Below are positions 1-45,475 of a stretch of 45,475 nt of DNA, one piece after another. This stretch comes from a bacterium (GTDB lineage Bacteria; Desulfobacterota; GWC2-55-46; S146-80; JALXFI01), in contig JALXFI010000331.1 of assembly GCA_027069035.1 (NCBI GenBank), forward strand, positions 1-45,475, written 5' to 3'. The position numbers and the translations under genes are program-made. A model generated the notes under the pieces. It was not told the DNA's origin, did no database searches, and saw only the letters and a list, made by a program, of their open reading frames with translations. How positions within the stretch are numbered: position 1 is the first letter of the stretch; every line of letters starts with the position of its first letter.

Positions 1-1162
1 AACCTATTATAAGCCAGTACAACATGGAAAGGTCATCCACAAACAGGTCATCAAACAGATTCAGGGTAAAAACACCTATCATCATAACAATCATCGAGAC
101 AAATATGGATTCCTCCAACCAGCTTCCACCCTGATGTAAGCCTTTGATATTTAAGTTTAATATCCTCCACTGTATCCAGAGAAATACAATAAGACCCTGG
201 ATTCCCATCTCTATCAAGAGATTAATAAAAAAATTATGCGGATGGGAATATCCATAAGGAACATCTGGAAAAGCAAAACCAAGACTATCTCTGCCAAACC
301 CTATACCATAAAAAGGGTGTTTCCAGAAGTTTCTTAATGTAAATAACCACACCTCCAGCCTGTCCTTATCTTTAGTGGGAAGAAATCCCTTATGAAATGG
401 TAATTTTAGACTGAGCAGCACAATCACCAAAATAAGTAATAAAAATATTATTAAGGATAGTCTCTTCCTTTTAATCAAGAGCAAGGGAGAAATTACTATT
501 TCCATAGATGCAGCTATCCACTGGCCTCTCTTGTCCGTAAGGAACAGTGTGAATAAAGTGATTACAAAGAGCAATAAAAAAAAGTACCTTTTCCAGTCCC
601 TACACAGAAAAAAGGGAATAAAGACAAAAGGAAATACTATAACAAGATATGCAGAGAAGTATTGTGCATCTGTATGTAGAGATTTCATCAGCCCATTCCT
701 TTCAAGGATATGGGCTTTATTTATTACAAAAAAATCCCAGAGACCATAGGTAAGCATAAGAACAAGTCCTGCCAGGATTGCAAGGTATATAATGAGTATT
801 CTATTCCTATTTACAATATTACCCACAACAAGCAAAAACAGTGCAAAGACTTCAAACAGTTCTCCTTTTATCTGATTTATACTGTTTATAAGATTGACGG
901 AGGTAAAAAGAGACAAAATGGCTATCCCTATGTAGATTGCAAATGGAAAATTAAGCTCGGTATTCAGGCGTTTATAATCTCTTGTTATGAAAAGCCTTGT
1001 TACAAATAAAACAATACCTGTAATAAAAAACAGATACCTGAGGGCATTTGTCCGTGCCACAGGAAGGATCAGGATAAGTAGGATTAGAGAAGTTACAATA
1101 GAAGAGTCTAAAAACTTTAAAAATCTTGTTTTTGAGTAATCAAGATTTACACTACTTGTCAT
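1..1162 (-). CDS. O-antigen ligase/polymerase family (Wzy_C-type) polytopic membrane protein; 3' end lies outside the window
   Basis: Absent from the ORF track because it runs off the left edge. My minus-strand translation from the ATG at 1162 stays open to position 1 (MTSSVNLDYSKTRFLKFLDSSIVTSLILLILILPV...). The product is very hydrophobic and contains YSHPHNFFINLLIEMGIQGLIVFL, a Wzy_C-like signature. ATGA start/stop overlap with the upstream GT4 gene. Confidence 0.7.
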   Translation of the reverse strand, partial: MTSSVNLDYSKTRFLKFLDSSIVTSLILLILILPVARTNALRYLFFITGIVLFVTRLFITRDYKRLNTELNFPFAIYIGIAILSLFTSVNLINSINQIKGELFEVFALFLLVVGNIVNRNRILIIYLAILAGLVLMLTYGLWDFFVINKAHILERNGLMKSLHTDAQYFSAYLVIVFPFVFIPFFLCRDWKRYFFLLLFVITLFTLFLTDKRGQWIAASMEIVISPLLLIKRKRLSLIIFLLLILVIVLLSLKLPFHKGFLPTKDKDRLEVWLFTLRNFWKHPFYGIGFGRDSLGFAFPDVPYGYSHPHNFFINLLIEMGIQGLIVFLWIQWRILNLNIKGLHQGGSWLEESIFVSMIVMMIGVFTLNLFDDLFVDDLSMLYWLIIG

Positions 1163-2355
1163 ATATACAATCCCTTATTATTCAAAAGATTGAGATAGAA
1201 GGCATTGAGATTTTTCACAAGTGTCTCTATGCTAAACCCTGGATATACTGCCTTCCTCCCCTCTTCTCCCATAACCTTTCGTAATCTTTCATCTTTAAGA
1301 AGCTGGATGGTTCTATCTGCCAACTGCTCAACATCCCTTGGAGGCACAAGAAATCCTGTTTTCTTATTCTTTACCAGATCCTTTACTCCACCCACTTCAG
1401 TAGCTATTACAGGCTTTCCACTTGCCATAGCTTCTATAAGTGAGACAGGAGTGCCTTCATTTAAAGAAGTCAATACTACTATATCAAGATCAGAATACAC
1501 CTGAGCGAGGTCAAACCTGAAGCCTGTGAATATGACAGAATCTTCAATGCCAACGCTATTTGAATATGCCTCAAGTTCTTTTCTCAATTCCCCATCTCCC
1601 ACAATAACAAACTTTACTCCCTTACTTATAGCAGGTTCTCTTTCAATCACCTTCTTAACAGCGTCTAAGAAGTATCTGTGTCCCTTGATGGGAACCAGCC
1701 TCCCAACCATACCTACGAGCAAACAGTCTTTTACCACACCAATAGACCTCTTGAAATCTCCTTTAGAATCCGTTATACAGGTAAATTTCTCCAATTCAAG
1801 TCCAAGGGGTATCACCTCTATCTTAGCATTAGAGCCAATACCATTCTTTAAGAGTTCATATTTAAGACTATTACTTAAGGTTATAATCTTCGTTGACAAA
1901 AAAGCCATAATCCTCTCTATCTGAATGAAAATAAAAGACCTTAACCTTCCAAAATAACCTTCTAATACATGGCCATGAAAGGTATGAACAATCACTGGCA
2001 CACCTGTTAGCCATGCAGCAAGTCTACCAAGCGTGCCTGCCTTTGCAGTGTGGGTATGAACTATATCAGGTTTTTCCCTTCTAATCAATCTATGGAGTTT
2101 AAAAAAGGCTATCAAATCATTCTTAAGGCTTATCTCCCTCCCAAGCTCAGGTATGACAATCGGTTTAACCCCCTTGGAGTTGGCAAGCCCCATCATGTCA
2201 CCTTCTGTTTTATCTTCAGAACCTTTTAGCAGAATAGTTTTATAACCATGTTTATCAAGCTCATGAGAAAGCAGTATTGTATGGATAGCAGGTCCTCCTA
2301 CATTAAGACGGGCAATTATTCGAAAGATTTTGATCCTTTTTTGCCTTTCCTTCAT
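1159..2355 (-). CDS. Glycosyltransferase, GT4 (GT-B, Glycos_transf_1) family
   Basis: 398 aa. N-terminal RLNVGGPAIH. C-terminal donor-binding block LTSLNEGTPVSLIEAMASGKPVIATEVGGVKDLV. ATG start abuts the asnB-like stop. Confidence 0.85.
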   Translation of the reverse strand: MKERQKRIKIFRIIARLNVGGPAIHTILLSHELDKHGYKTILLKGSEDKTEGDMMGLANSKGVKPIVIPELGREISLKNDLIAFFKLHRLIRREKPDIVHTHTAKAGTLGRLAAWLTGVPVIVHTFHGHVLEGYFGRLRSFIFIQIERIMAFLSTKIITLSNSLKYELLKNGIGSNAKIEVIPLGLELEKFTCITDSKGDFKRSIGVVKDCLLVGMVGRLVPIKGHRYFLDAVKKVIEREPAISKGVKFVIVGDGELRKELEAYSNSVGIEDSVIFTGFRFDLAQVYSDLDIVVLTSLNEGTPVSLIEAMASGKPVIATEVGGVKDLVKNKKTGFLVPPRDVEQLADRTIQLLKDERLRKVMGEEGRKAVYPGFSIETLVKNLNAFYLNLLNNKGLYI

Positions 2356-4254
2356 TCAATCGATGAACTCCCTATGCCAGAGTTCCAGCATAAGTAATGT
2401 CCACAACCTTTGTGAGTGATCTATTCTACCTGAAATATGCTCGGCCAACAATCTTCTAATGCCATCTGACTTGAAATATCCTCTTTCTATTGAACGACGA
2501 CTTAAAAGTGTATCAGACAGATAGTCTTTAAGATCATGCCTGAACCATCTGCAAACAGGGACGCCAAACCCTTTCTTGGGTCTCCTCAAGACTTCCTCTG
2601 GTATGATCTTCTTAAAAGCTTTCTTCAAAATATACTTCTTTATCATGCCTTTAAGCTTGTAATCTACAGGGATCCTTGCAACAAATTCTATAAATTTATG
2701 ATCAAGAAAAGGAGAACGAACTTCTAATGAATTTGCCATAGAGGCAATATCAACTTTTACTAAAAGATCGTATGGAAGATACGAATTAATATCTACTTCC
2801 ATTGTTTTCTCTACCATAGAGCTAGCACTTGTTTTTTTAAACAGAGTCATAAGATAGTCATAGCTATTTATATTCCTCATTTGACTTAACATATTACTGG
2901 AATAAAACTCCTTTTTTTGTTCTTCAGTAAAACACACCATCCATTTTATGTATTCCTGACCATCTGACCACAATGACCCCCGAATAAACCGTTTGAGTCT
3001 TTTAACCCTGCTGACATTCCCATCAGACTCGGGGAAAAAATCCAAAAATACCAGAAGGCTCTTTCGAAAAGAAGATGGAATGGCTTTAAAGTATCTTAAT
3101 ATTTTCTGTGCAAGATATCTATCATAACCCGCAAAATTCTCATCACCTGCATCACCACTCAAGGCAACCGTAACATACTTTCTGGTCATTCTGGAAAGAT
3201 AGTATGTAGGCAAGGCAGAAGAATCGGCATAAGGTTCACCATAATGTTTTACAAGCTTAGGTAGGATATCCAGAGTATCGTATTTTAATATGAACTCATG
3301 ATGGTCAGTGTTAAACTTTTCAGCGATTATCCTTGCATAAGGAAGTTCATTATACAATTCTTCCTCAAAGCCAATAGAAAATGTTTTTGCAGGTTTATCC
3401 ATCAAGTCGCTCATTAAAGCAACAACAATACTCGAATCAACCCCCCCACTCAAAAAAGCCCCTAATGGCACCTCTGAAATCAATCTCGATTTAACCGTTT
3501 CTTTTAATATGTCTATTAATTCCTCAATAATTTCCTCCTCATCTTTAACACTTAATTTTTCACTGTAACCGATTCTCCAATACCTTTTAATATCTATATT
3601 TCCATTCCCCAGGATCAAGTAGTGTGCTGGTGGTAGTTTGTAAATGGACTTAAAGGCTGTCTTGGGTGCAGGGATGTATTGATAACTTAGATAATAGTGT
3701 ATTGCCTCATAATCCACCTCCCTTAAAACGGATTTATCTTCCATGATTGCCTGCATCTCCGAAGCAAAAACAAGTCTCTTTTTATCCCAATAATAAAAAA
3801 GGGGCTTTTGTCCCAATCTATCTCTTGCCAAAAACAGCTTTTTTCTTTTTTCATCCCATATAGCAAATGCAAACATTCCTGAAAACCTGGAAAGACACCC
3901 CTCCCCCCATTCCTCATAAGCATGAATAACAACCTCCGTATCCGATGAGCTTTTGAAAACATGCCCTCTCGTTTCGAGTATAGCCCGAATCTCTTTAAAG
4001 TTATAAACCTCTCCATTATAAGTTATCCATATTGAACCATCCTCATTGGACATCGGCTGATGGCCATTGGGGGAAAGGTCAATGATAGAAAGCCTTCTGT
4101 GACAAAGTCCAACATGATTGTCCTTACTTATCCATATGCCACTGTCATCAGGGCCTCGATGACTCAGTATATCTGCCATATTTACAGCCAGAGCCCGAAG
4201 TTCATCTCCTGCCATCTGTCCAGACAGATCAACTAAGCCAGCAAAACCGCACAT
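2356..4254 (-). CDS. Asparagine synthase B-family glutamine amidotransferase (glycan-associated paralogue 1)
   Basis: 632 aa. Starts MCGFAG (Ntn Cys nucleophile directly after Met). HRGPDDSG and RLSIIDL GATase-II blocks. PP-loop SGGVDSS. Confidence 0.9.
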   Translation of the reverse strand: MCGFAGLVDLSGQMAGDELRALAVNMADILSHRGPDDSGIWISKDNHVGLCHRRLSIIDLSPNGHQPMSNEDGSIWITYNGEVYNFKEIRAILETRGHVFKSSSDTEVVIHAYEEWGEGCLSRFSGMFAFAIWDEKRKKLFLARDRLGQKPLFYYWDKKRLVFASEMQAIMEDKSVLREVDYEAIHYYLSYQYIPAPKTAFKSIYKLPPAHYLILGNGNIDIKRYWRIGYSEKLSVKDEEEIIEELIDILKETVKSRLISEVPLGAFLSGGVDSSIVVALMSDLMDKPAKTFSIGFEEELYNELPYARIIAEKFNTDHHEFILKYDTLDILPKLVKHYGEPYADSSALPTYYLSRMTRKYVTVALSGDAGDENFAGYDRYLAQKILRYFKAIPSSFRKSLLVFLDFFPESDGNVSRVKRLKRFIRGSLWSDGQEYIKWMVCFTEEQKKEFYSSNMLSQMRNINSYDYLMTLFKKTSASSMVEKTMEVDINSYLPYDLLVKVDIASMANSLEVRSPFLDHKFIEFVARIPVDYKLKGMIKKYILKKAFKKIIPEEVLRRPKKGFGVPVCRWFRHDLKDYLSDTLLSRRSIERGYFKSDGIRRLLAEHISGRIDHSQRLWTLLMLELWHREFID

Positions 4255-4437
4255 TTTTGTATTAACAACCTTCCTTATAACTTATAAAGATTATAAAAAT
4301 ACGCCAGAAACCTCACCTTTTCGAGTGGTGTTCCTGGCAGTCTTCTTACGTGAATAAATACTCTTTCAAACGGCTTGCTATGGCGTAACACCATAGGAAA
4401 TCACGCCGCGACACAACTATAATGCACCCTCAATTTT
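4255..4437 (-). promoter_or_regulatory. 183-bp intergenic spacer with two mutually exclusive short hairpins and a TATAAT box; possible internal promoter or processing site
   Basis: Inverted repeats CTATGG (4378-4383) / CCATAG (4391-4396) and GGCGT (4382-4386) / ACGCC (4403-4407) share two bases. The minus-strand reading contains TTTTTATAAT upstream of the asnB-like start. Locally more GC-rich than the flanks. Confidence 0.2.
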
Positions 4438-5265
4438 TTAACCATTAAGGAACTTCACCATCAACCTCTTTAAAAATTTAATCTGTGAAAAACAAAGCCC
4501 CATTATCAAAAATAACTTATCGATTGAATTATAATTATCGGCCCTCAACATCTTTAGAAAACTCAAACTTTGTCCCATCTGCATCTTCCAAAGATTAGCA
4601 CTCAATGAATCAGTCCCACCTAAGTAGTCATGTTTAAATGTAAATGTCAAAGGGAAATCAATTTTAATTGCAGGATAGTCTTTAACTATTCTTTTCCACA
4701 GATTATATTCCTCACAATATTTTATATCTTCATCAAATGAGTAGTGCTCTTTTAAACTCTTATGAATAACAACACTTGGTGTTGAAAATGGAGATTTAAA
4801 TAATATACCAGGCCATCTTATATAGTGGAATTTTATATCTTCAATATTGACTTCCATATTGTGATAATATTCCAATTCTTTTTCTGTAATTATCTTATGC
4901 ATTGTTCCACTAATCAACGACTTAGTTCTTCTCATCAACTCTATTTGAATATCTAACTTTTTTCTATGCCATGCATCGTCACTATCAAGAAAGGCAATAT
5001 ATTCTCCCTTGGCTATCGTAATCCCTCTATTCCTTGTATATGATTGTCCTTTATTATTTTTATTTCTTAAGAGCATAACATTGTCAGGCTGTTTTTCTTC
5101 AATCTTTTTTTCTAATATTCTATATGTCTTGTCTGTACTACAGTCATCGATAAGAATAATTTCTGTCCTGTTTTTATTTATTATGTATTCTTCTAATGTA
5201 AAAAATAACCGTGAAATAACACTCTCATCATTATATAAAGGTATAATTATCGAAACTTCCGGCAT
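4438..5265 (-). CDS. Glycosyltransferase family 2
   Basis: 275 aa. VSIIIPLYNDES, IDDCSTDKT, FLDSDDAW (DxD). Confidence 0.85.
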   Translation of the reverse strand: MPEVSIIIPLYNDESVISRLFFTLEEYIINKNRTEIILIDDCSTDKTYRILEKKIEEKQPDNVMLLRNKNNKGQSYTRNRGITIAKGEYIAFLDSDDAWHRKKLDIQIELMRRTKSLISGTMHKIITEKELEYYHNMEVNIEDIKFHYIRWPGILFKSPFSTPSVVIHKSLKEHYSFDEDIKYCEEYNLWKRIVKDYPAIKIDFPLTFTFKHDYLGGTDSLSANLWKMQMGQSLSFLKMLRADNYNSIDKLFLIMGLCFSQIKFLKRLMVKFLNG

Positions 5266-5278
5266 TGTCCGCTCTCAC

Positions 5279-5332
5279 CTATCTATCAAGATATTTCTTT
5301 TTAACATCGGCGTAAAAACAATTTGGGGCCAT
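5279..5332 (-). CDS. Candidate leader mini-ORF 2 (17 codons: MAPNCFYADVKKKYLDR)
   Basis: ATG at 5332 with GAGGAGG 3 nt upstream. Its TAG stop overlaps the GGTGAG SD-like element of the downstream GT2 gene. No homology evidence. Confidence 0.15.
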   Translation of the reverse strand: MAPNCFYADVKKKYLDR

Positions 5333-5333
5333 T

Positions 5334-5394
5334 TACCTCCTCAAAGGTCTTTTTTGCTAACTTGTAATCAAATAAGAATAGTTACAAGGAGGTA
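5334..5394 (-). repeat. Perfect 8-bp inverted repeat TACCTCCT (5334-5341) / AGGAGGTA (5387-5394) enclosing a 7-bp inverted repeat CTTGTAA (5361-5367) / TTACAAG (5382-5388)
   Basis: Read base by base from the sequence. The outer arms correspond to the SD of mini-ORF 2 and an anti-SD-like sequence. Confidence 0.6.
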
Positions 5395-5435
5395 GAAGTG
5401 GTGTAGTTTAATGCCGTGACACTGACATTAAGCAT
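5382..5435 (-). CDS. Candidate leader mini-ORF 1 (17 codons: MLNVSVTALNYTTSTSL)
   Basis: ATG at 5435 with GAGGAGG 4 nt upstream. Same 54-nt length as mini-ORF 2. Thr/Ser-rich C-terminus. No homology evidence. Confidence 0.15.
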   Translation of the reverse strand: MLNVSVTALNYTTSTSL

Positions 5436-5470
5436 AAATCCTCCTCATCTTAGAACCCTTCATTTTTGGC

Positions 5471-6262
5471 TTAGTTGGCTTGTTTTTGAACCCATTTATA
5501 CCAGTCCCATATTCCCTTTAACTTCTGCTTGAATATCCTCTCCGAATCATTTGCAAGTATTACGGTACGGTTTAAAAGTAAAGGATCTTTAAGACGGTTA
5601 TTTATACCAAAACAACTTGTAACACCAATCTTATACCCAGCTCTTTCTACTGCATTTCTGACCCTTAGATCTACTGCACCATGAGGATAGGAGATGATAT
5701 TTATTTCTTTCCCAGTAATATCTTCTAAATATTTCTTACTTGACTCCAATTCCTCTTTTAGAAGATCATCACTCAGCCTTGTCAGAGGGATATGGGTCAC
5801 ACCGTGCGAACCAATCATCACCAAAGGCAGTTTGGATAACTCATAGAGTTCCCCTCTATTTAAGTAATCTTTACCTCCCTTCTTAACAAAATCAGATACC
5901 ACAAATACTGTAAAAGGAATATTAAGTTCTTCCATTATGGGTGCGACAGCATATAAATTGTCTCTATACCCATCATCGAATGAAACTCCTATAGTTAAAC
6001 ATTGAGAGCCCAGAGTCTGCTTACCATTTATAATATCTGTTAAGGACAACTTTTTACTTTCGACCAATGTCTCCATGTGTCTTCTAAAAAGATCTGAAGA
6101 AACTGTAAAAATACCTCCTTTGTCATCCTTCACCCCTGGGCTCACAGAATGATATAATAGAATTCTCAATCCAGAACGAGGACCTAAAAAGATATTAAAT
6201 AAAGCCAAACACTCAGATATTAATATCTGAATAATTCTCTTCCAGCCTATGATATACCACAT
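5471..6262 (-). CDS. Polysaccharide deacetylase (NodB/CE4 family)
   Basis: 263 aa. ILLYHSV, VSFDDGYRDN (Asp pair), GSHGVTH (His motif). Hydrophobic N-terminus. Confidence 0.8.
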   Translation of the reverse strand: MWYIIGWKRIIQILISECLALFNIFLGPRSGLRILLYHSVSPGVKDDKGGIFTVSSDLFRRHMETLVESKKLSLTDIINGKQTLGSQCLTIGVSFDDGYRDNLYAVAPIMEELNIPFTVFVVSDFVKKGGKDYLNRGELYELSKLPLVMIGSHGVTHIPLTRLSDDLLKEELESSKKYLEDITGKEINIISYPHGAVDLRVRNAVERAGYKIGVTSCFGINNRLKDPLLLNRTVILANDSERIFKQKLKGIWDWYKWVQKQAN

Positions 6263-7248
6263 CGATATTTAATGGCAAGATTTACAACATAACGCAATAT
6301 GCGCGGTGTAACAAATTCCCATTCGCCTAACCTTCGAACCTTTAAAGCACCTACTCCCTTCTTAAAATTATAAACTCCAGGGTTATTACAAGGGTCTACT
6401 CCACCCATGTCATATAACTTAACTTCCTTATCTTTACATGCCCTTAATAAAGTCCATAATAACTTATGAGAAGCGTATAATTTCCTTGCGTGTATATTTG
6501 TGGCAGCAAAGAAATCCCAAGCTTTGTTGTTATATATGATTGCCCCTCTAAATGCAATCAAATCACCAGTTTTTCTATCGTTACACCGATACATAAGTAT
6601 TTTGTCACCAAATTTTTCAAATAACTTCAACAATTCTTCCTTAGAGTACTGAGTTTGGATAGATTTAAAATTTTCCATGGAACGATAAATATTAAGCATT
6701 TCATCAATATCTATATCTACCCAGGGTTCTATATTGAGCAAATCTTTTTTAAATCTTTTCAAATTGTGTCTCCAATTCTTTGAAAAACTTCTTATAAGCT
6801 CTTCCTCCGGTCTTGTTAAATCTAAAATCATTGTAAGATCAGTATTTATACTATAGACAGGTCGCTGCCATCCATTCTTTATTAGAGTTAAATCATAATA
6901 TTCGTTGGAATTAGAATAAGAGTCAAAACGAAAATACAAGTACCTTTTCTTAATGGCATCAACACATGCTATTATTAAGGTTTTACCAAAAGATGAAACG
7001 TCTCCCAAAGGACCTCCAGGACACCACATTATACCACCAAGAGGAAAGTGATGATACAAACATTGTGCCATAGCAATAACTTCATTTTGTGCATTATAAG
7101 CTGCAAAACGATATGGTACCCATCCAAAATAACGTTTATATTCACCCCAATTAAAACTTTGATAAATATTAAAATCACAAAACTTTGATAAGTTCTTATC
7201 CCATGTCTCCAAGGCAATGTAATCTGGAATTAAAGTCCAATTCACCAT
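6247..7248 (-). CDS. FemAB-like / Acetyltransf_6 GNAT-fold transferase (possible aminoacyl or acyl transfer to a glycan)
   Basis: Blocks FSKNWRHNLKRFKK and DLIAFRGAIIYNNKAWDFFAATN resemble the FemAB/BioF2-like acetyltransferase family. The ORF-track start at 7263 is a TTG; I prefer the ATG at 7248 (MVNWTL...), which gives an ATGGTGA overlap with the upstream stop. Confidence 0.6.
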   Translation of the reverse strand: MVNWTLIPDYIALETWDKNLSKFCDFNIYQSFNWGEYKRYFGWVPYRFAAYNAQNEVIAMAQCLYHHFPLGGIMWCPGGPLGDVSSFGKTLIIACVDAIKKRYLYFRFDSYSNSNEYYDLTLIKNGWQRPVYSINTDLTMILDLTRPEEELIRSFSKNWRHNLKRFKKDLLNIEPWVDIDIDEMLNIYRSMENFKSIQTQYSKEELLKLFEKFGDKILMYRCNDRKTGDLIAFRGAIIYNNKAWDFFAATNIHARKLYASHKLLWTLLRACKDKEVKLYDMGGVDPCNNPGVYNFKKGVGALKVRRLGEWEFVTPRILRYVVNLAIKYRCGIS

Positions 7249-12783: not shown

Positions 12784-12799
12784 CTGATATACTCTAAAC

Positions 12800-16377: not shown

Positions 16378-16378
16378 A

Positions 16379-20145: not shown

Positions 20146-20180
20146 CTCATAAATCTCTTAATGAAATTACTATTATAAGC

Positions 20181-29432: not shown

Positions 29433-29433
29433 C

Positions 29434-33980: not shown

Positions 33981-34008
33981 TGAGGAAAGTTGAAACAAAG
34001 GCTAAAAA

Positions 34009-37269: not shown

Positions 37270-37271
37270 GA

Positions 37272-38395: not shown

Positions 38396-39118
38396 TCATG
38401 CCTTCATCCCTCTTAAAATAACCAATCCTTCAAAAACTTTCATATCAAATGGGGTATCTATATCAAGGGACTCCTCCTGAGACACCACTATGCCTTTAAC
38501 ATTATCTCCTAAAGCAAAATTTTTACCATTCCAGTAATTAAGTAGAGACCTTTTTCTACCAAAGATAGCACCTGTCATACCATATGCCTCGGGTCTGTCC
38601 TGTTTCTGCTGGTAGCTTTCGGTAGTATATTCTGTAAGAGGAGAAATTCTGCTGGTTTCATTATCATATTTATAAGCCCTGAAGGGATGGAAGTGAATTA
38701 TCTTTGTTATAGTTACAACAGAATCACAATGAGTCTTCTCCATCAATCTTACTGCCAGTTTTATTGTTTCAGGTCTTATTAATGGAGAGGTGGGTTGTAT
38801 CGAAAAAACAAGGTCGTAATAACTATTCTGATTCTCAAGATATTCTACAGCATGTTTTACAACATAAACGAGTGAAACTTCATCTCTTGCAAATTCTTGA
38901 GGTCTTATAAAGGGTATCTCAATGGCAGGGTATCTCGAACTTACCACTTCGGCTATCTCTTCAGAGTCAGTAGATAGAACTACTCTATTAAAAGCCTCTG
39001 ATTCAAGGATGGTTTCTATCACATATCCTATCAATGGTTTTCCCCCTACTGTCACTATATTCTTTTTAGGAATTGCTTTAGAACCTCCCCTTGCAGGTAT
39101 GATGCATAATGTACCCAT
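38396..39118 (-). CDS. Acylneuraminate (CMP-ulosonic acid) cytidylyltransferase, NeuA-like
   Basis: 240 aa. LCIIPARGGSKAIPKKNIVTVGGKPLIGYVIE, IPFIRPQEFARDE, QPTSPL. Confidence 0.85.
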   Translation of the reverse strand: MGTLCIIPARGGSKAIPKKNIVTVGGKPLIGYVIETILESEAFNRVVLSTDSEEIAEVVSSRYPAIEIPFIRPQEFARDEVSLVYVVKHAVEYLENQNSYYDLVFSIQPTSPLIRPETIKLAVRLMEKTHCDSVVTITKIIHFHPFRAYKYDNETSRISPLTEYTTESYQQKQDRPEAYGMTGAIFGRKRSLLNYWNGKNFALGDNVKGIVVSQEESLDIDTPFDMKVFEGLVILRGMKA

Positions 39119-39128: not shown

Positions 39129-39893
39129 TTATTGAACTATACGCAATTTGGTATTGATAGAAGGATCTAAGACTTTCTCCTTTATCCTTCCTTCATGATC
39201 TATATGGGGATTGTTATCAAAAAACTCTATAATATCCAATAATGTAAATTCCTTGTTTTTTTTGTATAGATAATTGTATAACTTTTCAACCACTTCAAAA
39301 TCATCCTGAGTGTCAATCGTAACCGTATAATTGGGTCTATAATATTTATCTGAAGGACACCTGTATTTTGCATGTCTAAATACATGTGGGTGATCTTTAA
39401 AGTACAAGGTCATATATTCAGAGAAATTTGGGTCCACAGATAATTCCAGGCACTTCTTCATTGCCTTAAAGGAAATGATCTCTGGTCTTGTCCCCCGAGG
39501 TGTATCTTCTGTAAATGTGTAGTCAGCTCTCTCCTTTATATGGAGCTTCACCATCTCATCTATGATGAACGGATCGGTGAGGGGATTGTCTCCTGTGATA
39601 CGTACAATATGGTCAGCCAGATATTTTTCAGCTGCCTCTATAAAACGGAGCAAGACATTTTCTGGATGACCTCTAAATACCTTAAACCCGTATTCATTGG
39701 CAAAGACCTCTATAGGATCATCTCCAGGGAGGGTAGAGGTACAGATAACAGTATCAACAGGTACCTTTGCCATCCTCACTCTTTGCATGAGATGCCAAAG
39801 GATAGATTTTCCCTCTATGGTTTTTAGTGCCTTACCAGGCAATCTCTTTGACTTCATCCTTACAGCAACAAGATTAACAACTATCGGCTTCAT
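39129..39893 (-). CDS. SpsF-like cytidylyltransferase (CTP_transf_3)
   Basis: VAVRMKSKRLPGKALKTIEGKSIL, FRGHPENVLLRF, IVRITGDNPLTDP. I prefer the ATG at 39893 over the TTG at 39905. Confidence 0.8.
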   Translation of the reverse strand: MKPIVVNLVAVRMKSKRLPGKALKTIEGKSILWHLMQRVRMAKVPVDTVICTSTLPGDDPIEVFANEYGFKVFRGHPENVLLRFIEAAEKYLADHIVRITGDNPLTDPFIIDEMVKLHIKERADYTFTEDTPRGTRPEIISFKAMKKCLELSVDPNFSEYMTLYFKDHPHVFRHAKYRCPSDKYYRPNYTVTIDTQDDFEVVEKLYNYLYKKNKEFTLLDIIEFFDNNPHIDHEGRIKEKVLDPSINTKLRIVQ

Positions 39894-40908
39894 ATAGATC
39901 TTCAAGACGTATTGCCTTATTGGCAGGTATGAAGTGCTTTGTTTTCTTTAGGACTCTCTTATATCTATCAGGAGGTAATCCCTCCTCTTCTGTCCTCTTA
40001 AAAGAGAGGTCTTCTAAGGTAATGAGGTGACCTTTAGGTATATCTCTTGAAGCCACTATCTTCTTTTTCATCAGTCGTCTATAAGTAACTTCAGCTTTGC
40101 TCTCACCTGGTACTATCTCATTTATACCGTACGCCTTTTCTATCTGTCTCACCATTCCTACCAATCGTGCAAACTCATCTGGATTTAATGCAGAATAGTA
40201 ATCACGCCCCTTCTTTGACCTATCAAGAGTAATATGTTTTTCTATTACACTCACACCATAACCAATAGCAACGAGGGGAAGTGAGAGAGCAAGTTCTGAC
40301 TCAGCATCTATATGATCAGCAAAACCTAAATGATAAGGATATCTTTCCTTCAATACATTAAGTAGTCTGAAATTGGTATCATCAATACGTGTTGGAAAAC
40401 CTTGAAAACCATGCATTAAAATGATGTTCTTATTGCCAATTTTTTCTATATTTTGGATTGCATAGCTTATCTCTGTCTCTGTTGCTGCACCTACTGAGAG
40501 AATAAGAGGCTTCATAGTAGCTGCTACATATTTGAGTAAGAATGGATTAGTCAAGTCAGATGTAGGGATTTTATAAGCTGATATATCCAGTTTTTCAGCC
40601 AGTTTGAAACTCCTTTCATCAAAAACCTCTGAAACAACAAACAAACCTATTCTTCTAGAATATTCGATAATTTCATACCACTGTTCATCAGAGAATTGAA
40701 GCTGCTTAAAACTTGGATACTTATGATGATTAGGGACTATAAGATTATCTGTATTTAATATTTGATACTTAATAGCATCTGCCTCTGTCATCGAGACAGC
40801 ATCAGCTATCCTCTTAGCAAGTTCAACATCGCCCTCATGACTGGAAGCCGTTTCTGCTATAACGAATATAGATTCAAAAGGTTTAATTAAGGCTCCATTG
40901 AGTTCCAT
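39874..40908 (-). CDS. NeuB/SpsE-family ulosonic acid synthase, paralogue 3 (divergent N-terminal motif)
   Basis: FVIAETASSHEGD where AEIGxNHNGD is expected. FADHIDA, VIEKHITLDRS, and SAF-like tail KKKIVASRDIPKGHLITL. I prefer the ATG at 40908 (MELNGALIK...), one nt after the upstream TGA, over 40965. Confidence 0.85.
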   Translation of the reverse strand: MELNGALIKPFESIFVIAETASSHEGDVELAKRIADAVSMTEADAIKYQILNTDNLIVPNHHKYPSFKQLQFSDEQWYEIIEYSRRIGLFVVSEVFDERSFKLAEKLDISAYKIPTSDLTNPFLLKYVAATMKPLILSVGAATETEISYAIQNIEKIGNKNIILMHGFQGFPTRIDDTNFRLLNVLKERYPYHLGFADHIDAESELALSLPLVAIGYGVSVIEKHITLDRSKKGRDYYSALNPDEFARLVGMVRQIEKAYGINEIVPGESKAEVTYRRLMKKKIVASRDIPKGHLITLEDLSFKRTEEEGLPPDRYKRVLKKTKHFIPANKAIRLEDLYEADSC

Positions 40909-40909: not shown

Positions 40910-41911
40910 TCACTTCCATCGGTATGTTGTTGGTCTGAAACAGGTTCGACACGCAGGTATGTCATCCAATTCTATCTTTCTTATCTTATCTCTTAATCTA
41001 TTCAATGTGGCACCATGCCATATCTCTTCAATCGACTGTTTATAGTAATCTCCCACCACTGTCTTTCTGTTCCAGTCACCACAACACATAAGAACCTTAC
41101 CGTCCCGATTGATATTCAATCTTTGCCATGGCTGTTCACAAAACCTTCTTCCAATCGGTCTCTTGCCGTCTCTAAATGGATATCCATCCTCGACATAGCG
41201 ATCTTGATTTTCGATAATCGCTATATTATCAACTCCTCTGCCCTTCCAGAAGTTGATGAACTGCTCAACCTCTCTCTCTGTTTCATAATAATTTACCATT
41301 TGGACACGAATAAAGGGTCTCTTTACGCCCTTCTGTTTCTTTACCTTTATGAAAGTTTCTATATTTCTAATTAGCTTATCATAATCTCCCCCAACCCTTA
41401 TCTTCTCATAAGACTCCTTAGTTGCTCCATCTACTGAGAATATGATTCGATCAAGCCCTGCATCTACCAAGTCCTCAACCTTCTTTCTGTTTGCAGGCAG
41501 TCCATTCGTATTAAACTGGACCTCAAGTACCCCTTTATTCTTTGCATAACGGACAAATTCAACCAGGTTTTTATGAAGCATGGGCTCGCCCCTAAAATTA
41601 AACTTTATCGAATACACACCAAGTTCGGCACATTCGTCTATCGCTTTATATGCAAGGGTTGGTTCTATAAAACCTGCGTTGGGCACCCCTTTTATTCCAT
41701 GGACACACATAATGCATCTCAGATTACACGCATCACTTACCTCTATATCTACATGAAGTGGAACATTACTTAATATTCTGAATTTGGGATAATAATTCCA
41801 TTTCAAACGATAAAGCCAGTAGCGAAAATCTCTACCCCTTTTCACAATATTATTCACATAACCCTTTATCCCTGTCCTATCTACTATATTTTTCTTATAT
41901 TTGTAATGCAT
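40910..41911 (-). CDS. Radical SAM enzyme with a Cys-poor SPASM/twitch-like C-terminal domain (paralogue 2)
   Basis: 333 aa. CNLRCIMC. C-terminal C(EQPW)...CC(GDW)...CRTC. Collinear with the 21471-22466 product, including the N-terminal W-x-Y-P-x-F...PLHVD extension. Confidence 0.85.
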   Translation of the reverse strand: MHYKYKKNIVDRTGIKGYVNNIVKRGRDFRYWLYRLKWNYYPKFRILSNVPLHVDIEVSDACNLRCIMCVHGIKGVPNAGFIEPTLAYKAIDECAELGVYSIKFNFRGEPMLHKNLVEFVRYAKNKGVLEVQFNTNGLPANRKKVEDLVDAGLDRIIFSVDGATKESYEKIRVGGDYDKLIRNIETFIKVKKQKGVKRPFIRVQMVNYYETEREVEQFINFWKGRGVDNIAIIENQDRYVEDGYPFRDGKRPIGRRFCEQPWQRLNINRDGKVLMCCGDWNRKTVVGDYYKQSIEEIWHGATLNRLRDKIRKIELDDIPACRTCFRPTTYRWK

Positions 41912-41915: not shown

Positions 41916-43952
41916 CTATACCGTGTTGATTATACAAGGTTGACGAAGTAACTTTTTTGTATTGACCTTCGCGAGTATCCTTGAAATGCCAATCAAATCA
42001 GTGCCATATATCTTCTTAAATCTTTTTATCGTGTCAAGTTGCTCTTCAGTATGTCTGAATACAATAAGCCTCTCTTTATAACAGCCTATTCCTTCTCCCA
42101 AAAGATAGAATCCCCTTTGCTTAATGATTGAGTCGAAATCAAATTTTGATATCATCTTAATAGCTACGGTATTGTCTTCAAATAATCCTTTGGCTTGTGA
42201 AACACAATAAGTAACCACCTCTTTTATACAATCTCTTTGCAAATTGTTAAGTTTACCTATATGCTGGGATAGAATTTTCAATGCGCTTCTTAATACTACC
42301 TCACCCATCTCTCCTATATATTGCAGCATACCCAAAGATTTATACTTAAATAATAGATTACTTCCATACTCACCACTGATATACTTATCAATGTTCTCTT
42401 TAAGGTATCTATATAAAGCCTCTTTATTTTCCCATAACTCACCTCTGGTCTCGTTCAAAAAGTCATCAAAAAGTCTATTCAGCCTCTCTGGTACCGGGTT
42501 ATTATAAATATCCTTAAGCAACTTAAATATAGGGATAGACTCACTCTTGAAAAGTTGATGAAGCGGATAAAAAAGACCGTCGTTATAAAACAGAGCGACT
42601 ATTAAATGCATCTTCCTACATTGAAGATACTCGTCAAAGCTCATACTATCTGTTGATACAACCACTTCTTCAATCTCAGCGGAAGTCAATCTATCACCAT
42701 TATACTCGAAAAAGCCAAAGCATCTTGGAATCACTCTGTATCTGGTTATCAATCCAAATCTCTTACGATACTCAGTTGACCACATCTCAGAACCAGGTAA
42801 CAACATTAATGTATAAAGGTTTATATAATTGAATCCCATGTCTATTAACTCCGCAATACTTTTAAAATGGGATTCCTTAGTCTCTCCAGGTAATGCAAGA
42901 ATCAATTCACTGTAACTATTAGCCCCTGATGCTGTAGCTTCTATGGCAAGATGAAGCAGTTGTTTTTTGGAGATATTGCTGCGTTTTATGTTAGAGAGTA
43001 CAACTTTATCCATGCTTTGCACAGAACCAGCAACCCGTAGAGCCCCATCGATTAGCTGACCACCTTTTATTATCCTATCTTTATTGGACTTTCCAGTAGA
43101 CACATTAACATAAGACGGCCATCCGAACTCTTTCCGACACTGGCTAATGAGTTCAAACGTAAAGTAGTCCTCTCTGAACATACCAAAATTGGAATCAGCT
43201 ATATGGAGGTCAGCCCGCCCTCCACAATCTACTACTGGTTTTATACGTCGTGCTATATAAAATAACTCTTCACGGATATAATTCAAAGGCTTTCTATTAA
43301 TTTTATTATAATACCTAGCACCTTCACAGCAATATGTGCATCTGAATGGACAACCACGAACTGTCTGAATGATTGGAAGAAATCTTCCGTCAAAAAATTC
43401 ATCTAACACTCCCTGTGTATATGGAGAGGGTATATCTCCAAGATCTTCAATACGTGGGGCGGAATGATTCAAGACCACCTTATTTTTACTTTTTGAAAAA
43501 TAATGTATAGAAGGAACATCCACATCCACCTGAGGTCTAATATCAGTTGATAGCAATTCTTTTATCAATTGACTAAAGGGCAACTCCCCCTCCCCCACCA
43601 CATAATAATCTATAGCAGCATGTTTCCTTAAAAACTCCTCCCTGCTATGCTTGTCCTGAGGGTAATTAGGTCCACCAAATACAATAGTAGTTTCTGGATG
43701 CCATTTACGTATCTCTTTGGCAAAGATATAACTAAGATTGAAATTCCATGCATAATTGGAGAAACCAATAACTTCCGGCACTTCTATAGATAAAGCCTCT
43801 ACTAACTGTTTAGGTGTCTTAAAAATACGCAAGGCAACAGAATCACCCAAAACTTTTGAAGTATAGGTAGCAATACAACCAATAGCATAAGGCATAATGT
43901 CAGAGGCAATTGTCTGTTGTGTATATGTTAGATCAACCAAGAATATTAACAT
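41916..43952 (-). CDS. B12-binding-domain radical SAM enzyme (class B, methyltransferase-like) with a long C-terminal extension
   Basis: 678 aa. N-terminal cobalamin-binding-like Rossmann region (VIGFSNYAWNFN...IVFGGPNYP...YYVVGEGE). VRGCPFRCTYC cluster motif. About 250-aa uncharacterised tail. Confidence 0.8.
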   Translation of the reverse strand: MLIFLVDLTYTQQTIASDIMPYAIGCIATYTSKVLGDSVALRIFKTPKQLVEALSIEVPEVIGFSNYAWNFNLSYIFAKEIRKWHPETTIVFGGPNYPQDKHSREEFLRKHAAIDYYVVGEGELPFSQLIKELLSTDIRPQVDVDVPSIHYFSKSKNKVVLNHSAPRIEDLGDIPSPYTQGVLDEFFDGRFLPIIQTVRGCPFRCTYCCEGARYYNKINRKPLNYIREELFYIARRIKPVVDCGGRADLHIADSNFGMFREDYFTFELISQCRKEFGWPSYVNVSTGKSNKDRIIKGGQLIDGALRVAGSVQSMDKVVLSNIKRSNISKKQLLHLAIEATASGANSYSELILALPGETKESHFKSIAELIDMGFNYINLYTLMLLPGSEMWSTEYRKRFGLITRYRVIPRCFGFFEYNGDRLTSAEIEEVVVSTDSMSFDEYLQCRKMHLIVALFYNDGLFYPLHQLFKSESIPIFKLLKDIYNNPVPERLNRLFDDFLNETRGELWENKEALYRYLKENIDKYISGEYGSNLLFKYKSLGMLQYIGEMGEVVLRSALKILSQHIGKLNNLQRDCIKEVVTYCVSQAKGLFEDNTVAIKMISKFDFDSIIKQRGFYLLGEGIGCYKERLIVFRHTEEQLDTIKRFKKIYGTDLIGISRILAKVNTKKLLRQPCIINTV

Positions 43953-45328
43953 TACGACAATTCCTCCAAGATCTTTTCAGCAACCCAGTAACTGAATTCA
44001 TCTTCTATCTTCCAAGAATCCTTTGGAGACATCTCTACATGACCGACCTTGCTTCCAAGAAAGCTGTTTTTATACAGATTCTTTGTTTTAATTACATAGA
44101 TAGAACCATTTTCTTTGTAAATGGTATTTTTATCTTCTCTCAAAAGGCGTTTTTGATATCCCACGGGAGCTAATCCATACTTGTCAGGCTTCCAGTGGAA
44201 TGTGAGGTCAACTACAACCCCTATAACAGAGTCTGTATTATATAAAAGGATTGTATCGATCGCTTCTGTTATATGTTTTTCTTTTCTAAAAGGAGTAAAA
44301 TACTGTAACTGGACGATCAGGTCAGGAACATCTTCTTCTCTCTCTTTAAAGACCTCAATCATGTGCCGTAATACATTATCAAAGGGAACACTGGTTCTGG
44401 CGAGTTCCACAGGCCTTAAAAACGGGACCTCGGCTCCAAACTTCTTAGATACCTCTGCTATCTCCTGATCTTCGGTGGAGACTATCACACGATCAATCAA
44501 TTCAGTTTTTAATGCCTCTTCAATTGTGTAGGCAATAAGAGGCTTCCCATTTAAAGGCTTGAGGGCAAGTTTCTCTCTATTCCTGAACAAACCCATCGCA
44601 GGAATAACAGCGATTATATTTTTCCCTTCATAGTACTGCTTTTTATCAACAAACTTCTTCTTGACATATCTTCTCGCCTCCATCCGAGCTTCAAAGTTGT
44701 TTGACATGCTTACATCATGCTTTCTGTAATACATAAGTGGCAGATTAACATTATAGACATTGAACTTATCAATAAATCTAATCCAAAAATCATAATCTTC
44801 TTGATATCTTAACTCTTCGCTATACCCACCTATAGCATCATAACATTCTCTTCTGAACATAGCGCCTGCTGCAAGGGGATTACGGTCCAGAAGTTTGACC
44901 TCGTCATTCACCTTCTGTAAACGATAGGAATCTATTATCTCTCCGTATTTGTTAATACGATAATAATCTGGATAAACCATATGGATGTTAGGATCGCTGT
45001 CGAGTATATACGACTCTATTAGTAGGATATTCTCATCAAAGTAATCATCCGCATCCAGTCTGATAATATATCTTCCTTTTGAAGCCCTTATACCTGTATT
45101 GCATGCCTTAGCAAGCCCCACACCTTCAGTTGTAATAACCTCTATTTTCTCGGGGTACTTGTTCTTGTAGTGATTGAGTATTACAGGAGTACTGTCTGTA
45201 CTGCCATCATCCACTACTATCATCTCCCAGTCAGTAAATCTCTGTTTTATAACACTATCAAGACACTGTGGTAGATATTTCCCATAGTTGTGGGCTGTAA
45301 CTATAACGCTAACCTTTACTTCTGACAT
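43952..45328 (-). CDS. Fusion protein A: N-terminal GT2 domain (intact DxD) plus C-terminal CTP_transf_3 cytidylyltransferase-like domain
   Basis: VSVIVTAHNYGKYLPQCLDSV, VVDDGSTD, IRLDADDYF; then IIAVIPAMGLFRNREKLALKPLNGKPLIAYTIEEA, RVIVSTED, GAEVPFLRP. Start set at the ATG at 45328 (MSEVKV), which has AAGGTGGG 5 nt upstream; the ORF-track start at 45358 is a TTG. Confidence 0.75.
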   Translation of the reverse strand: MSEVKVSVIVTAHNYGKYLPQCLDSVIKQRFTDWEMIVVDDGSTDSTPVILNHYKNKYPEKIEVITTEGVGLAKACNTGIRASKGRYIIRLDADDYFDENILLIESYILDSDPNIHMVYPDYYRINKYGEIIDSYRLQKVNDEVKLLDRNPLAAGAMFRRECYDAIGGYSEELRYQEDYDFWIRFIDKFNVYNVNLPLMYYRKHDVSMSNNFEARMEARRYVKKKFVDKKQYYEGKNIIAVIPAMGLFRNREKLALKPLNGKPLIAYTIEEALKTELIDRVIVSTEDQEIAEVSKKFGAEVPFLRPVELARTSVPFDNVLRHMIEVFKEREEDVPDLIVQLQYFTPFRKEKHITEAIDTILLYNTDSVIGVVVDLTFHWKPDKYGLAPVGYQKRLLREDKNTIYKENGSIYVIKTKNLYKNSFLGSKVGHVEMSPKDSWKIEDEFSYWVAEKILEELS

Positions 45329-45475
45329 CTTTACCCACCTTTTGTAAAAAATACTCAAAGGTCATTTTCAGTCCAGCATACAGGTCCCATTTAGGTTCAA
45401 ACCCCAATATCTGCCTCGCCTTTGAGATATCAGAGAAGTTCCTTCTAACATCGCCAGAGCGAGTATCTCCATAAA
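45309..45475 (-). CDS. Extended SDR NAD-dependent sugar epimerase/dehydratase (GalE/WbpP-like); C-terminal fragment, 5' end outside the window
   Basis: My translation of the minus strand gives YGDTRSGDVRRNFSDISKARQILGFEPKWDLYAGLKMTFEYFLQKVGKDVRSKG-stop. The GD-x-R...DISKA...LG-x-P-K pattern is the typical C-terminus of this family. Its TAG at 45309-45311 overlaps the next gene by 20 nt. Confidence 0.7.
   Translation of the reverse strand, partial: YGDTRSGDVRRNFSDISKARQILGFEPKWDLYAGLKMTFEYFLQKVGKDVRSKG

Follow-up and report, generated by a model that had tools for sequence, protein, structure and literature searches.

We analyzed a 45,475-nucleotide stretch of bacterial DNA (contig JALXFI010000331.1 of assembly GCA_027069035.1; here, the window), in which an earlier note made from the letters alone had seen a glycan locus with three NeuB-family synthases, six cytidylyltransferase domains, and three radical S-adenosylmethionine (SAM) enzymes. 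The window is a single metagenomic contig that ends inside a gene on either side. It carries 38 complete genes with family support, all on the minus strand, which tile positions 1159 to 45358 with 98% coding sequence, and a partial gene at each end. The 37 junctions comprise 11 overlaps, 19 gaps of 0 to 30 bp, 5 gaps of 31 to 100 bp, and 2 gaps of more than 100 bp, and the description of the genes as co-directional and tightly packed was borne out (38 of 38 open reading frames [ORFs] on the minus strand; 30 of 37 junctions overlapping or at most 30 bp long). The six plus-strand ORFs of at least 100 amino acids (aa) are all nested within minus-strand genes, and none had a Pfam match at gathering score in a search at E ≤ 1. 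No RNA gene was found in tRNA and Rfam scans of the window, and a promoter and terminator scan of the two larger intergenic gaps gave a signal no better than that of shuffled sequence. The GC content ranges from 0.32 to 0.41, the GC skew is negative throughout, and the strand bias is uniform. The synthase, cytidylyltransferase, and radical SAM genes are the following.

24599-25609, minus strand: NeuB_a, SpsE/LegI-like synthase (Pfam NeuB 6e-78, plus SAF; best PDB match, Bacillus subtilis SpsE, 9e-54)
37272-38336, minus strand: NeuB_b, "partner" synthase of the cassette described below (Pfam NeuB 3.5e-80, plus SAF)
39874-40908, minus strand: NeuB_c, deep-branching NeuB-family synthase (Pfam NeuB 2.3e-52, plus SAF)
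39129-39905, minus strand: SpsFl_1, SpsF-type cytidylyltransferase, partner of NeuB_c (CTP_transf_3 3.9e-25, 89 bits, full length)
38396-39118, minus strand: NeuAl_1, NeuA-type cytidylyltransferase (CTP_transf_3 1e-25, 91 bits)
31443-32210, minus strand: SpsFl_2, second SpsF-type cytidylyltransferase (CTP_transf_3 1.4e-22, 81 bits, full length; QARIRSSRLHAK loop)
17740-18474, minus strand: NeuAl_2, NeuA-type cytidylyltransferase (CTP_transf_3 9e-22, 78 bits, N-terminal half only; IPARKGSTRLKIKN loop)
43952-45358, minus strand: GT2CT_1, family 2 glycosyltransferase (GT2) with a CTP_transf_3-like domain (GT2 7.7e-31; CTP_transf_3 2.8e-16, 60 bits)
16379-17731, minus strand: GT2CT_2, divergent fusion of GT2 and cytidylyltransferase (CT) domains (GT2 3.2e-27; CTP_transf_3 8e-10, 39 bits)
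40910-41911, minus strand: SPASM_1, radical SAM/SPASM enzyme (Pfam; C62xxxC66xxC69)
21471-22481, minus strand: SPASM_2, radical SAM/SPASM enzyme (Pfam; C69xxxC73xxC76)
41916-43952, minus strand: B12-binding radical SAM enzyme of the KedN5-like C-methyltransferase type, 678 aa (Pfam B12-binding and Radical_SAM; C201xxxC205xxC208)

Pfam confirmed NeuB, with a SAF match, at all three positions where the earlier note had placed NeuB/SpsE-type genes. The NeuB domain (PF03102) scores 262 bits in NeuB_a, 269 in NeuB_b, and 178 in NeuB_c, with a gathering cutoff of 22.1, and the SAF domain scores 20.8, 22.1, and 27.0 bits across the three synthases versus a cutoff of 21. The NeuB_c ORF may extend to 40965; the database gene call is 344 aa, in agreement with 39874-40908. 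The three proteins are only 29 to 37% identical in pairs and fall into three separate clades; they are thus mutually diverged, as had been claimed, and are not recent duplicates. Their SDH/SDH/ADH and EKH motifs align, and the histidines of these motifs, correctly read before as retained metal ligands, map to the metal-binding H215 and H236 of Neisseria meningitidis NeuB. The catalytic E25, K53, and Q55 (N. meningitidis NeuB numbering) are also kept in all three, and NeuB_c keeps the SAF arginine (R314, in FKR). Each of the three lies at a similar distance from the solved SpsE, PseI, N. meningitidis NeuB, and PDB entry 6ncs (25 to 39% identity; 27% for NeuB_c versus SpsE); we take 6ncs to be a Leptospira protein. 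NCBIfam equivalog models for N-acetylneuraminate synthase (TIGR03569, cutoff 399.65 bits) and pseudaminic acid synthase (TIGR03586, cutoff 340.25 bits) gave, in that order, 306 and 272 bits for NeuB_a, 332 and 276 for NeuB_b, and 213 and 181 for NeuB_c, all below cutoff.

We built a neighbor-joining tree of 146 NeuB domains with the four structural references (NeuB, PseI, SpsE, and 6ncs) and rooted it at the midpoint. The NeuB_c clade, with 88 leaves, splits at this root from the clade that holds all four references. NeuB_b belongs to a 13-member clade, sister to 6ncs, together with the partner NeuBs of the related loci L004, L005, L006, L009, L012, L016, L021, and L049 (loci bearing NeuB_c relatives, see below), while NeuB_a groups with B. 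subtilis SpsE in a clade of 14. The NeuB_c clade is marked by the motifs IAExASSHEG and ADHxDAES. NeuB_c is no more than 61% identical to its closest homologues, many of which are about 580 aa long and combine NeuB with CTP_transf_3 in one protein.

All six CTP_transf_3 domains that had been proposed exceed the Pfam gathering score of 22.6 bits, at 39 to 91 bits. The nucleotide-binding loop (PAR-G-S-K/R...K-N or RLPGK) is present in the four stand-alone cytidylyltransferases; SpsFl_1 has an RMKSKRLPGK loop and matches PDB entry 6oew (3.6e-28), and NeuAl_1 carries the canonical IPARGGSKAIPKKN and DID motifs. None passes the PseF model TIGR03584 (cutoff, 205.7 bits): NeuAl_1 is best at 146 bits, three other matching domains score 65 to 91, and SpsFl_1 and SpsFl_2 have no match to it. 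GT2CT_1, whose true start is likely the ATG at 45328, keeps a DADD motif in its GT2 domain, and its PDB sequence matches are 6p61 and K4CP for the N-terminal domain and NeuA for the C-terminal domain. In GT2CT_2, the GT2 DxD motif is replaced by SGHC and the CT loop is strongly degenerate; the protein may be noncatalytic or changed in function. All six domains score, but to speak of six cytidylyltransferases overstates the number of catalytic ones, since both GT2-fused domains are without the canonical PARGGSK..KN loop. The same loop is absent from 16 homologues of the GT2-fused CT domains. By its sequence relatives the GT2-CT fusion is judged a genuine family, with 1,899 representatives at E ≤ 1e-30; among the 150 best matches listed, many are about 450 to 480 aa long and span both domains.

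The three radical SAM genes and the one Wzx gene of the earlier note are also there, with a CxxxCxxC motif in all three enzymes and Wzx at 34009-35517. The SPASM domains score 52.9 and 44.3 bits versus a cutoff of 21.5 and the B12-binding domain 40.2 versus 32.1; the B12-binding enzyme reaches 160 bits with the KedN5-type model NF033712, below its cutoff. The two SPASM enzymes are 29% identical. The best PDB sequence matches of SPASM_1 are BtrN (4e-14) and BlsE (7e-10), an aminocyclitol dehydrogenase and a cytosylglucuronate decarboxylase, respectively, both carbohydrate-modifying radical SAM enzymes. The spiro-SPASM model TIGR04321 is matched in its N-terminal part by both SpsF-like proteins and in its C-terminal part by SPASM_1; at 36 to 93 bits versus a cutoff of 250, these window proteins are below family level. 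As the model describes a single chain, it provides a fusion-based (Rosetta-stone) link between an SpsF-like cytidylyltransferase and a SPASM radical SAM enzyme. We also considered a SPASM enzyme as an anaerobic sulfatase-maturating enzyme (anSME) for the "sulfatase" gene at 25637-27010 and rejected it, as the product of that gene has no C/SxPxR motif; the anSME model was absent among the best 25 of 52 and the best 25 of 40 NCBIfam matches of the two SPASM proteins.

We investigated the distribution of NeuB_c by scanning metagenome contigs with two clade-specific peptide patterns, which gave 526 relatives, and took 80 loci for annotation by BLASTP against the window proteins. In 61 of the 63 loci with enough sequence, the gene of the NeuB_c clade is either fused to an SpsF-like cytidylyltransferase gene (37 loci) or lies directly 5' of one. 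A second NeuB is nearby in 24 of the 25 loci that extend 4 kb or more to both sides, and three NeuB genes occur in 4 of these 25 and also in L006. Of the same 25 loci, 10 have a SPASM gene, 6 have a GT2-CT fusion, and 6 have a B12 radical SAM gene; these genes are concentrated in the closer relatives. The order GT2-CT, SPASM, NeuB, SpsF-like, NeuA-like, and NeuB, with or without the B12 radical SAM gene, is seen in L003, L004, L006/L007, L009, L016, L021, L033, and L049. L004 is a Magnetococcales metagenome-assembled genome (MAG; JADFZS010000015.1). Its cassette is flanked by three large tetratricopeptide repeat (TPR) proteins, which are reminiscent of FlmG-type flagellin glycosyltransferases. 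On the 665-kb contig L005 (JGI 3300041085 Ga0452209_000001), SPASM, NeuB-CT fusion, SDR (short-chain dehydrogenase/reductase), UDPG-DH, GT2-CT, NeuB, and DegT genes adjoin STT3/AglB and a TFIIS-type zinc ribbon gene; because of these two neighbors, the contig is probably archaeal and its cassette tied to N-glycosylation.

In a scan of genome contigs with NeuB_c, only Bacillus spizizenii matched, at 37% identity. The cultured strain DV1-B-1 (NZ_AFSG01000020.1; L002:9968-11767) has a NeuB_c-type-SpsF fusion ORF that is 37% and 31% identical to the NeuB_c and SpsF-type proteins of the window and lies upstream of a pse-like set of SDR, DegT, SpsF-like, PseG-like, and NeuB genes. This fusion could be a tractable experimental model. 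Judged by gene content and order, the set of NeuB_c, SpsF-like, radical SAM, GT2-CT, and partner NeuB genes is a conserved, widespread, and uncharacterized cassette. A literature search, with most subscription journals outside it, found neither a description of this cassette or of a syntenic locus with a defined product nor a link between radical SAM enzymes and nonulosonic acid (NulO) synthesis.

How the synthases are supplied with substrate had appeared as a puzzle in the earlier note, which recognized no NeuC/LegG-type epimerase and no PseB/PseC/PseH set. Family searches of the 38 window proteins agree that NeuC/LegG, PseB, and PseH homologues are absent; Epimerase_2 (PF02350, NeuC/LegG) matched none of the 38 and is present in L005 and L006. 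For PseC there is a weak and distant candidate, a DegT-like gene (34 bits). The textbook pseudaminic set (PseB, C, H, G, I, and F) is incomplete, with only a PseG-like gene, below cutoff. The puzzle stands insofar as the textbook set is absent from the window, but it is partly an artifact, as a PseG homologue lies at 23535-24596 and the contig is cut, at its upstream end, within an SDR gene (listed next).

45309-45475, minus strand: SDR epimerase/dehydratase, 3' end (last 54 codons), cut by the contig end (translation contains GDVRRNFSDISKARQILGFEPKWDL)

Because the upstream end is cut inside this gene, some precursor genes are probably off the contig. The partial SDR matches the C termini of the cassette SDRs of L009 (54% identity), L003, L005, L049, and L030, and related loci place SDR and SQD1-like genes exactly at the position of the cut. 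In L003, the gene upstream of the cassette SDR encodes a UDP-sulfoquinovose synthase (L003:5400-6605; 581 bits versus a curated cutoff of 575). Of the 12 loci that span 10 kb or more and carry a GT2-CT fusion, 7 have an SQD1-like gene, and the loci with a UDP-sulfoquinovose synthase homologue are L003, L004, L006/L007, L009, L016, L030, L049, and L069; L005 and L012 have a UDP-sugar dehydrogenase gene in its place. As SQD1-like or UDP-sugar dehydrogenase genes accompany the cassette, it commonly has an enzyme making a C6-anionic UDP-hexose. An SQD1 homologue is absent from the window; judging from synteny, such a gene may be located just past 45475. The C6-anionic UDP-hexose may be a separate glycan residue, perhaps transferred by the DxD-bearing GT2 domain, or, more speculatively, a synthase substrate. 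No paper joining sulfoquinovose to NulO was among the best literature matches listed.

The other end of the window is extended by an independent scaffold, L001, which is 99.2% identical to window positions 1 to 5382 and on which the gene cut at the window start is complete (414 aa, with PF04932).

1-1162, minus strand: Wzy_C-domain membrane protein of the polymerase, ligase, or O-oligosaccharyltransferase type (5' 387 codons; runs off the contig)

Past the window start, L001 carries an SDR gene and a WecA-family initiating transferase gene, then genes for a major facilitator superfamily (MFS) transporter, MazE/PIN, IMP dehydrogenase (IMPDH), and GuaA. Because these last are unrelated genes, the glycan locus ends about 4 kb beyond the window start. 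The MazE/PIN pair, a toxin-antitoxin system, lies at L001:9841-10486, a short way downstream of the locus. Among named relatives, those closest to the L001 IMPDH are from Thermodesulfobacteriota/Deltaproteobacteria MAGs (71 to 76% identity), and the source of the window is an uncultured, probably anaerobic bacterium.

The remaining 26 complete genes are listed from the upstream end of the locus.

35521-37275, minus strand: LIC12162-family transferase, GT-B fold (TIGR04331 [PF27859], 401 bits, full length; cutoff, 225)
34009-35517, minus strand: Wzx-type flippase (Polysacc_synt 1.2e-17; 10 transmembrane [TM]-like segments)
32217-33998, minus strand: orphan 593-aa protein between Wzx and the SpsF-like gene (weak C-terminal similarity to the PseG-like [GT-B] protein)
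30773-31426, minus strand: PIG-L/LmbE-family de-N-acetylase (PF02585, 3.3e-16)
29434-30750, minus strand: nucleotide-sugar 6-dehydrogenase (three UDPG_MGDP_dh domains; TIGR03026, 188.2 bits versus a cutoff of 189.8)
27750-29450, minus strand: AsnB-type glutamine amidotransferase (Asn_synthase 1e-58; TIGR01536, 385 bits; cutoff, 267)
26995-27744, minus strand: WbqC-family protein (PF08889, 1.5e-68)
25637-27010, minus strand: alkaline phosphatase superfamily "sulfatase"-like protein (PF00884, 2.6e-17; no C/SxPxR formylglycine motif)
23535-24596, minus strand: PseG/SpsG-like nucleotide-sugar hydrolase (TIGR03590, E 5e-35, 121.5 bits, below the 153.6 cutoff)
22567-23436, minus strand: SAM-dependent methyltransferase (Methyltransf_31/25/11)
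20181-21386, minus strand: GFO/IDH/MocA oxidoreductase (Pfam; weak matches to inositol 2-dehydrogenase and UDP-GlcNAc 3-dehydrogenase models)
18502-20145, minus strand: sugar-acid dehydratase of the galactarate/altronate dehydratase family (GD_AH_C 1.2e-61; TIGR03248, 254 bits; cutoff, 731)
14791-16395, minus strand: 534-aa protein with a weak match to LIC13510 "surface carbohydrate biosynthesis" (TIGR04326, E 7e-6, 24.7 bits; cutoff, 250)
13951-14769, minus strand: glucose-1-phosphate cytidylyltransferase (TIGR02623, 366 bits; cutoff, 300)
12800-13972, minus strand: CDP-glucose 4,6-dehydratase (TIGR02622, 455 bits; cutoff, 278)
12343-12783, minus strand: cupin epimerase-like protein (Pfam)
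11369-12346, minus strand: SDR (Pfam)
10467-11372, minus strand: GT2 (Pfam/NCBIfam)
9122-10459, minus strand: Wzy-like orphan, 445 aa (nine TM-like segments, by TM count)
8312-9100, minus strand: DUF218/ElyC-like protein (Pfam/NCBIfam)
7242-8309, minus strand: DegT-like protein (weak match; PseC model, 34 bits)
6247-7263, minus strand: FemAB-like protein (Pfam/NCBIfam)
5471-6262, minus strand: polysaccharide deacetylase (Pfam/NCBIfam)
4438-5265, minus strand: GT2 (Pfam/NCBIfam)
2356-4254, minus strand: AsnB amidotransferase (passes an asparagine synthase-type NCBIfam model)
1159-2355, minus strand: family 4 glycosyltransferase, GT4 (Pfam/NCBIfam)

The AlphaFold2 model of the LIC12162-family protein is confident (predicted local distance difference test [pLDDT], 91; predicted template modeling score [pTM], 0.92), and Foldseek matched it only to distant GT-B glycosyltransferases; on this model, the protein is assigned as a GT-B glycosyltransferase. 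The Foldseek matches are generic, and a resemblance to known sialyltransferases or 3-deoxy-d-manno-octulosonic acid (Kdo) transferases was rejected on that ground. In L088 and L089, loci of the Omnitrophica type, genes of the same family lie among NeuB, CT, SPASM, and B12 radical SAM genes; in Herbaspirillum AU14040, they adjoin neuABC. In the paper on the Tannerella NulO transferase, we found none of the family and database terms for which it was searched. Pfam searches at E ≤ 1 found nothing on the two orphan proteins of 445 and 593 aa, and the 593-aa protein had no NCBIfam match at E ≤ 1 either; from its similarity to the PseG-like protein, it is possibly GT-B-like in its C-terminal half.

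The PIG-L family recurs in the related loci L004, L009, L023, L035, L039, and L043. Both WbqC and PIG-L genes turn up again close to NeuB genes of related loci, and at L023:16721-18123 they stand side by side; nothing relevant on WbqC function was found in the literature searched. With its formylglycine motif absent, the 25637-27010 protein is more likely a hydrolase or transferase of the alkaline phosphatase superfamily than a sulfatase. The dehydratase homologue and the GFO/IDH/MocA oxidoreductase (18502-21386) stand between a SPASM enzyme and a NeuA-type cytidylyltransferase. This pair could convert an aldose to a 2-keto-3-deoxy acid without NeuB and would then offer a fourth way of making an ulosonic acid; the related loci that we annotated showed neither family. 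By their model scores, the genes at 11369-14769 are assigned as a CDP-6-deoxyhexose block. The run of GT2, deacetylase, DegT, and Acetyltransf_6 (FemAB) genes in 1159-8309 partly recurs in an Omnitrophica locus (L088:13931-17761), and the whole run, with AsnB and GT4, resembles exopolysaccharide (EPS) loci of the PEP-CTERM/XrtA type, with all scores below cutoff. Genes for a Wzx/Wzy-type set are present as the Wzx gene, the Wzy_C gene at the window start, and the nine-TM protein at 9122-10459; the WecA-family initiating transferase is found only on L001, outside the window.

We consider it rather probable that the window holds most of one operon-like Wzx/Wzy surface-glycan locus that would supply several activated sugars, most likely three CMP-nonulosonic-type acids. 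Its gene content as a whole points to a complex acidic glycan, which could be an O-antigen, a capsule or EPS, or a lipid-linked protein glycan. The data behind this are domain identities, motifs, clade placement, and conserved synteny, from which we infer all substrates and products and the order in which the steps occur. The sugars supplied would be a CDP-6-deoxyhexose, a probably amidated uronic acid, and, most likely, three different CMP-activated nonulosonic-type acids. In module 1 (45358-35521), the conserved cassette, NeuB_c would condense phosphoenolpyruvate (PEP) with an aldose and the dedicated SpsF-type cytidylyltransferase would activate the product. The SPASM enzyme and the B12 radical SAM methyltransferase would modify the sugar, either as such or attached to a nucleotide, through C-H chemistry, for which oxidation, epimerization, decarboxylation, and C-methylation are candidate reactions. 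NeuB_b and the NeuA-type enzyme would form a second synthase/synthetase pair for a second acid, with the GT2-CT fusion and the GT-B protein of the LIC12162 family as candidates for the transferases. Module 3 (25609-14791) would center on the SpsE/SpsG-like (legionaminic-type) synthase-hydrolase pair, accompanied by its own methyltransferase, SPASM enzyme, oxidoreductase, dehydratase, NeuA-type synthetase, and degenerate GT2-CT protein.

A NeuB-SpsF pair or fusion is most simply a synthase with its activator, because B. subtilis SpsF is a putative CMP-legionaminic acid synthetase, genetically needed after legionaminic acid (Leg) synthesis (Dubois et al. 2020, PMC7439481). With a cytidylyltransferase gene close to each synthase, the simplest interpretation is that the locus makes more than one CMP-activated ulosonic acid. 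The earlier proposal of two to four such acids gains from this proximity and from the deep divergence of the synthases and is reasonable but unproven. Nothing turned up that the earlier note had named in advance as speaking against its proposal: the synthases are not near-identical, the six domains score, and no syntenic locus with a defined product was found. The cassette, we infer, serves to modify an ulosonic acid, as such or linked to CMP, by radical SAM chemistry. More tentatively, and as a possibility rather than a probability, the cassette may make an undescribed class of radical-SAM-tailored ulosonic acid, for example C-methylated, oxidized, or derived from a 6-sulfo or 6-carboxy sugar, for use in anaerobic bacterial and archaeal surface glycans and N-glycans.

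Several observations weigh against a locus for three nonulosonic-type acids. The hexosamine-modifying enzymes of the textbook neuraminic acid, Leg, and pseudaminic acid (Pse) routes are absent from the window. No product is assignable to any synthase, because none reaches an NCBIfam equivalog cutoff. The SAF arginine R314 is Thr in NeuB_a and not alignable in NeuB_b, a C-terminal DxD is not evident in NeuAl_2, and the CT loop is noncanonical in both GT2 fusions (IPAMGLFRNREKL in GT2CT_1 and IPVKGE in GT2CT_2). The neighbor-joining tree has no bootstrap, and its sampling is skewed to the NeuB_c clade. The taxonomic pointer to an anaerobe is a weak one, a single IMPDH gene on the approximately 99%-identical L001 from another assembly. 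Finally, the near-obligatory second NeuB beside the NeuB_c clade is compatible with one shared pathway instead of two sugars.

From this last point comes the strongest alternative, that NeuB_c and NeuB_b act in one pathway to a single unusual sugar, with NeuB_c and its SpsF-like partner supplying a PEP-derived building block or working on an intermediate of the partner pathway, so that there are fewer ulosonic acids than synthases. It would account for the co-occurrence in 24 of 25 loci, for the partner NeuBs of cassette loci forming one clade, and for the B. spizizenii fusion, which stands directly upstream of an apparently complete pse-type set. We regard it as unlikely, since there is usually one cytidylyltransferase per synthase (a fusion plus a separate NeuA or SpsF in L080/L081 and L002, and likewise the window), which fits independent pairs, and since known chemistry does not require two NeuB-type condensations for one sugar.

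The degenerate residues just listed (no DxD or CT P-loop in GT2CT_2, no C-terminal acidic motif in NeuAl_2, no SAF arginine in NeuB_a and NeuB_b) would also be expected if some NeuB and CT paralogues were decaying or redundant in a mosaic, horizontally assembled locus that makes one nonulosonic acid, and the range of GC content along the window is like that of mosaic O-antigen loci. This is less likely still: the three synthases are full length and keep their catalytic and metal-binding residues, syntenic loci from distant taxa hold conserved orthologues of each, and the tightly packed genes show no frameshifts or stops. A chimeric assembly joining the glycan genes of different organisms, which a metagenomic contig and the variable composition of glycan loci might suggest, is highly improbable given the uniform strand bias and negative GC skew, the 30 of 37 junctions that overlap or leave at most 30 bp, the independent scaffold with 99.2% identity over 5.4 kb, and identical gene orders in several unrelated assemblies.

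Nonulosonic acids, such as sialic, legionaminic, and pseudaminic acids, shape the recognition of microbes by hosts, phages, and other microbes. To our knowledge, all characterized routes to them use dehydratase, aminotransferase, and acetyltransferase chemistry followed by one NeuB-type condensation. NeuB_c represents a separate, widespread synthase clade (526 relatives in one metagenome scan) that is genetically tied to an SpsF-type activator, almost always found with a second synthase, and often flanked by radical SAM enzymes. If a new tailored acid is indeed made, the known chemical space of sialic-acid-like sugars would expand, this would be the first role of radical SAM enzymes in this sugar class as far as our literature search shows, and the GT2-CT fusions and the LIC12162 family would be candidate transferases for a poorly understood step.

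The earlier note had set the locus against a background in which one synthase and one CMP-synthetase per locus are normal. Multisynthase loci have precedents in Leptospira interrogans and in metagenomic three-NeuB loci. The Campylobacter jejuni flagellin glycosylation locus has neuB2/legI and neuB3/pseI, two CMP-synthetases, and two acids (Leg and Pse) in one region. It serves Maf-dependent O-glycosylation of flagellin, its precursor sets for Pse and Leg are both complete, and it lacks Wzx/Wzy genes and radical SAM enzymes. What appears new in the window, from its gene content, is the NeuB_c/radical SAM cassette.

The NulO/rfb (O-antigen) cluster of L. interrogans has two synthases, two CMP-synthetases, and several aminotransferases (Ricaldi et al. 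2012, PMC3438082). The window resembles it in being a long surface-glycan locus with its genes in one direction and in encoding more than one NulO synthase and more than one CMP-NulO synthetase, and it has a member of the LIC12162 family, named after Leptospira, and a weak match to the LIC13510 family. Only the Leptospira cluster has a complete LegB/C/H/G/I/F-type set and a synthase-phosphatase fusion, whereas in the window there are three synthases, a LegG/NeuC homologue is absent, and the synthases are not accompanied by a LegB/LegC/LegH-type set. Three radical SAM genes and two GT2-CT fusions as in the window are not described for the Leptospira cluster.

In B. subtilis spsC-G, the genes for SpsE, the SpsF-type cytidylyltransferase, and the PseG-like SpsG are adjacent (PMC7439481). 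The window resembles this pathway in that NeuB_a groups with SpsE and has a PseG-like gene directly downstream, and in that NeuB_c is followed by an SpsF-like gene. It differs in having no SpsM, SpsC, or SpsD equivalents beside the synthases and in the position of NeuB_c outside the SpsE clade, and the B. subtilis Leg pathway is without radical SAM genes. The closest parallel to the joining of these two enzyme types is the spiro-SPASM family of spirochaetes (TIGR04321), in which one protein combines an SpsF-like cytidylyltransferase-type N-terminal domain with a radical SAM/SPASM C-terminal domain; the window, with scores below the family cutoff, splits these halves into two genes on either side of NeuB_c.

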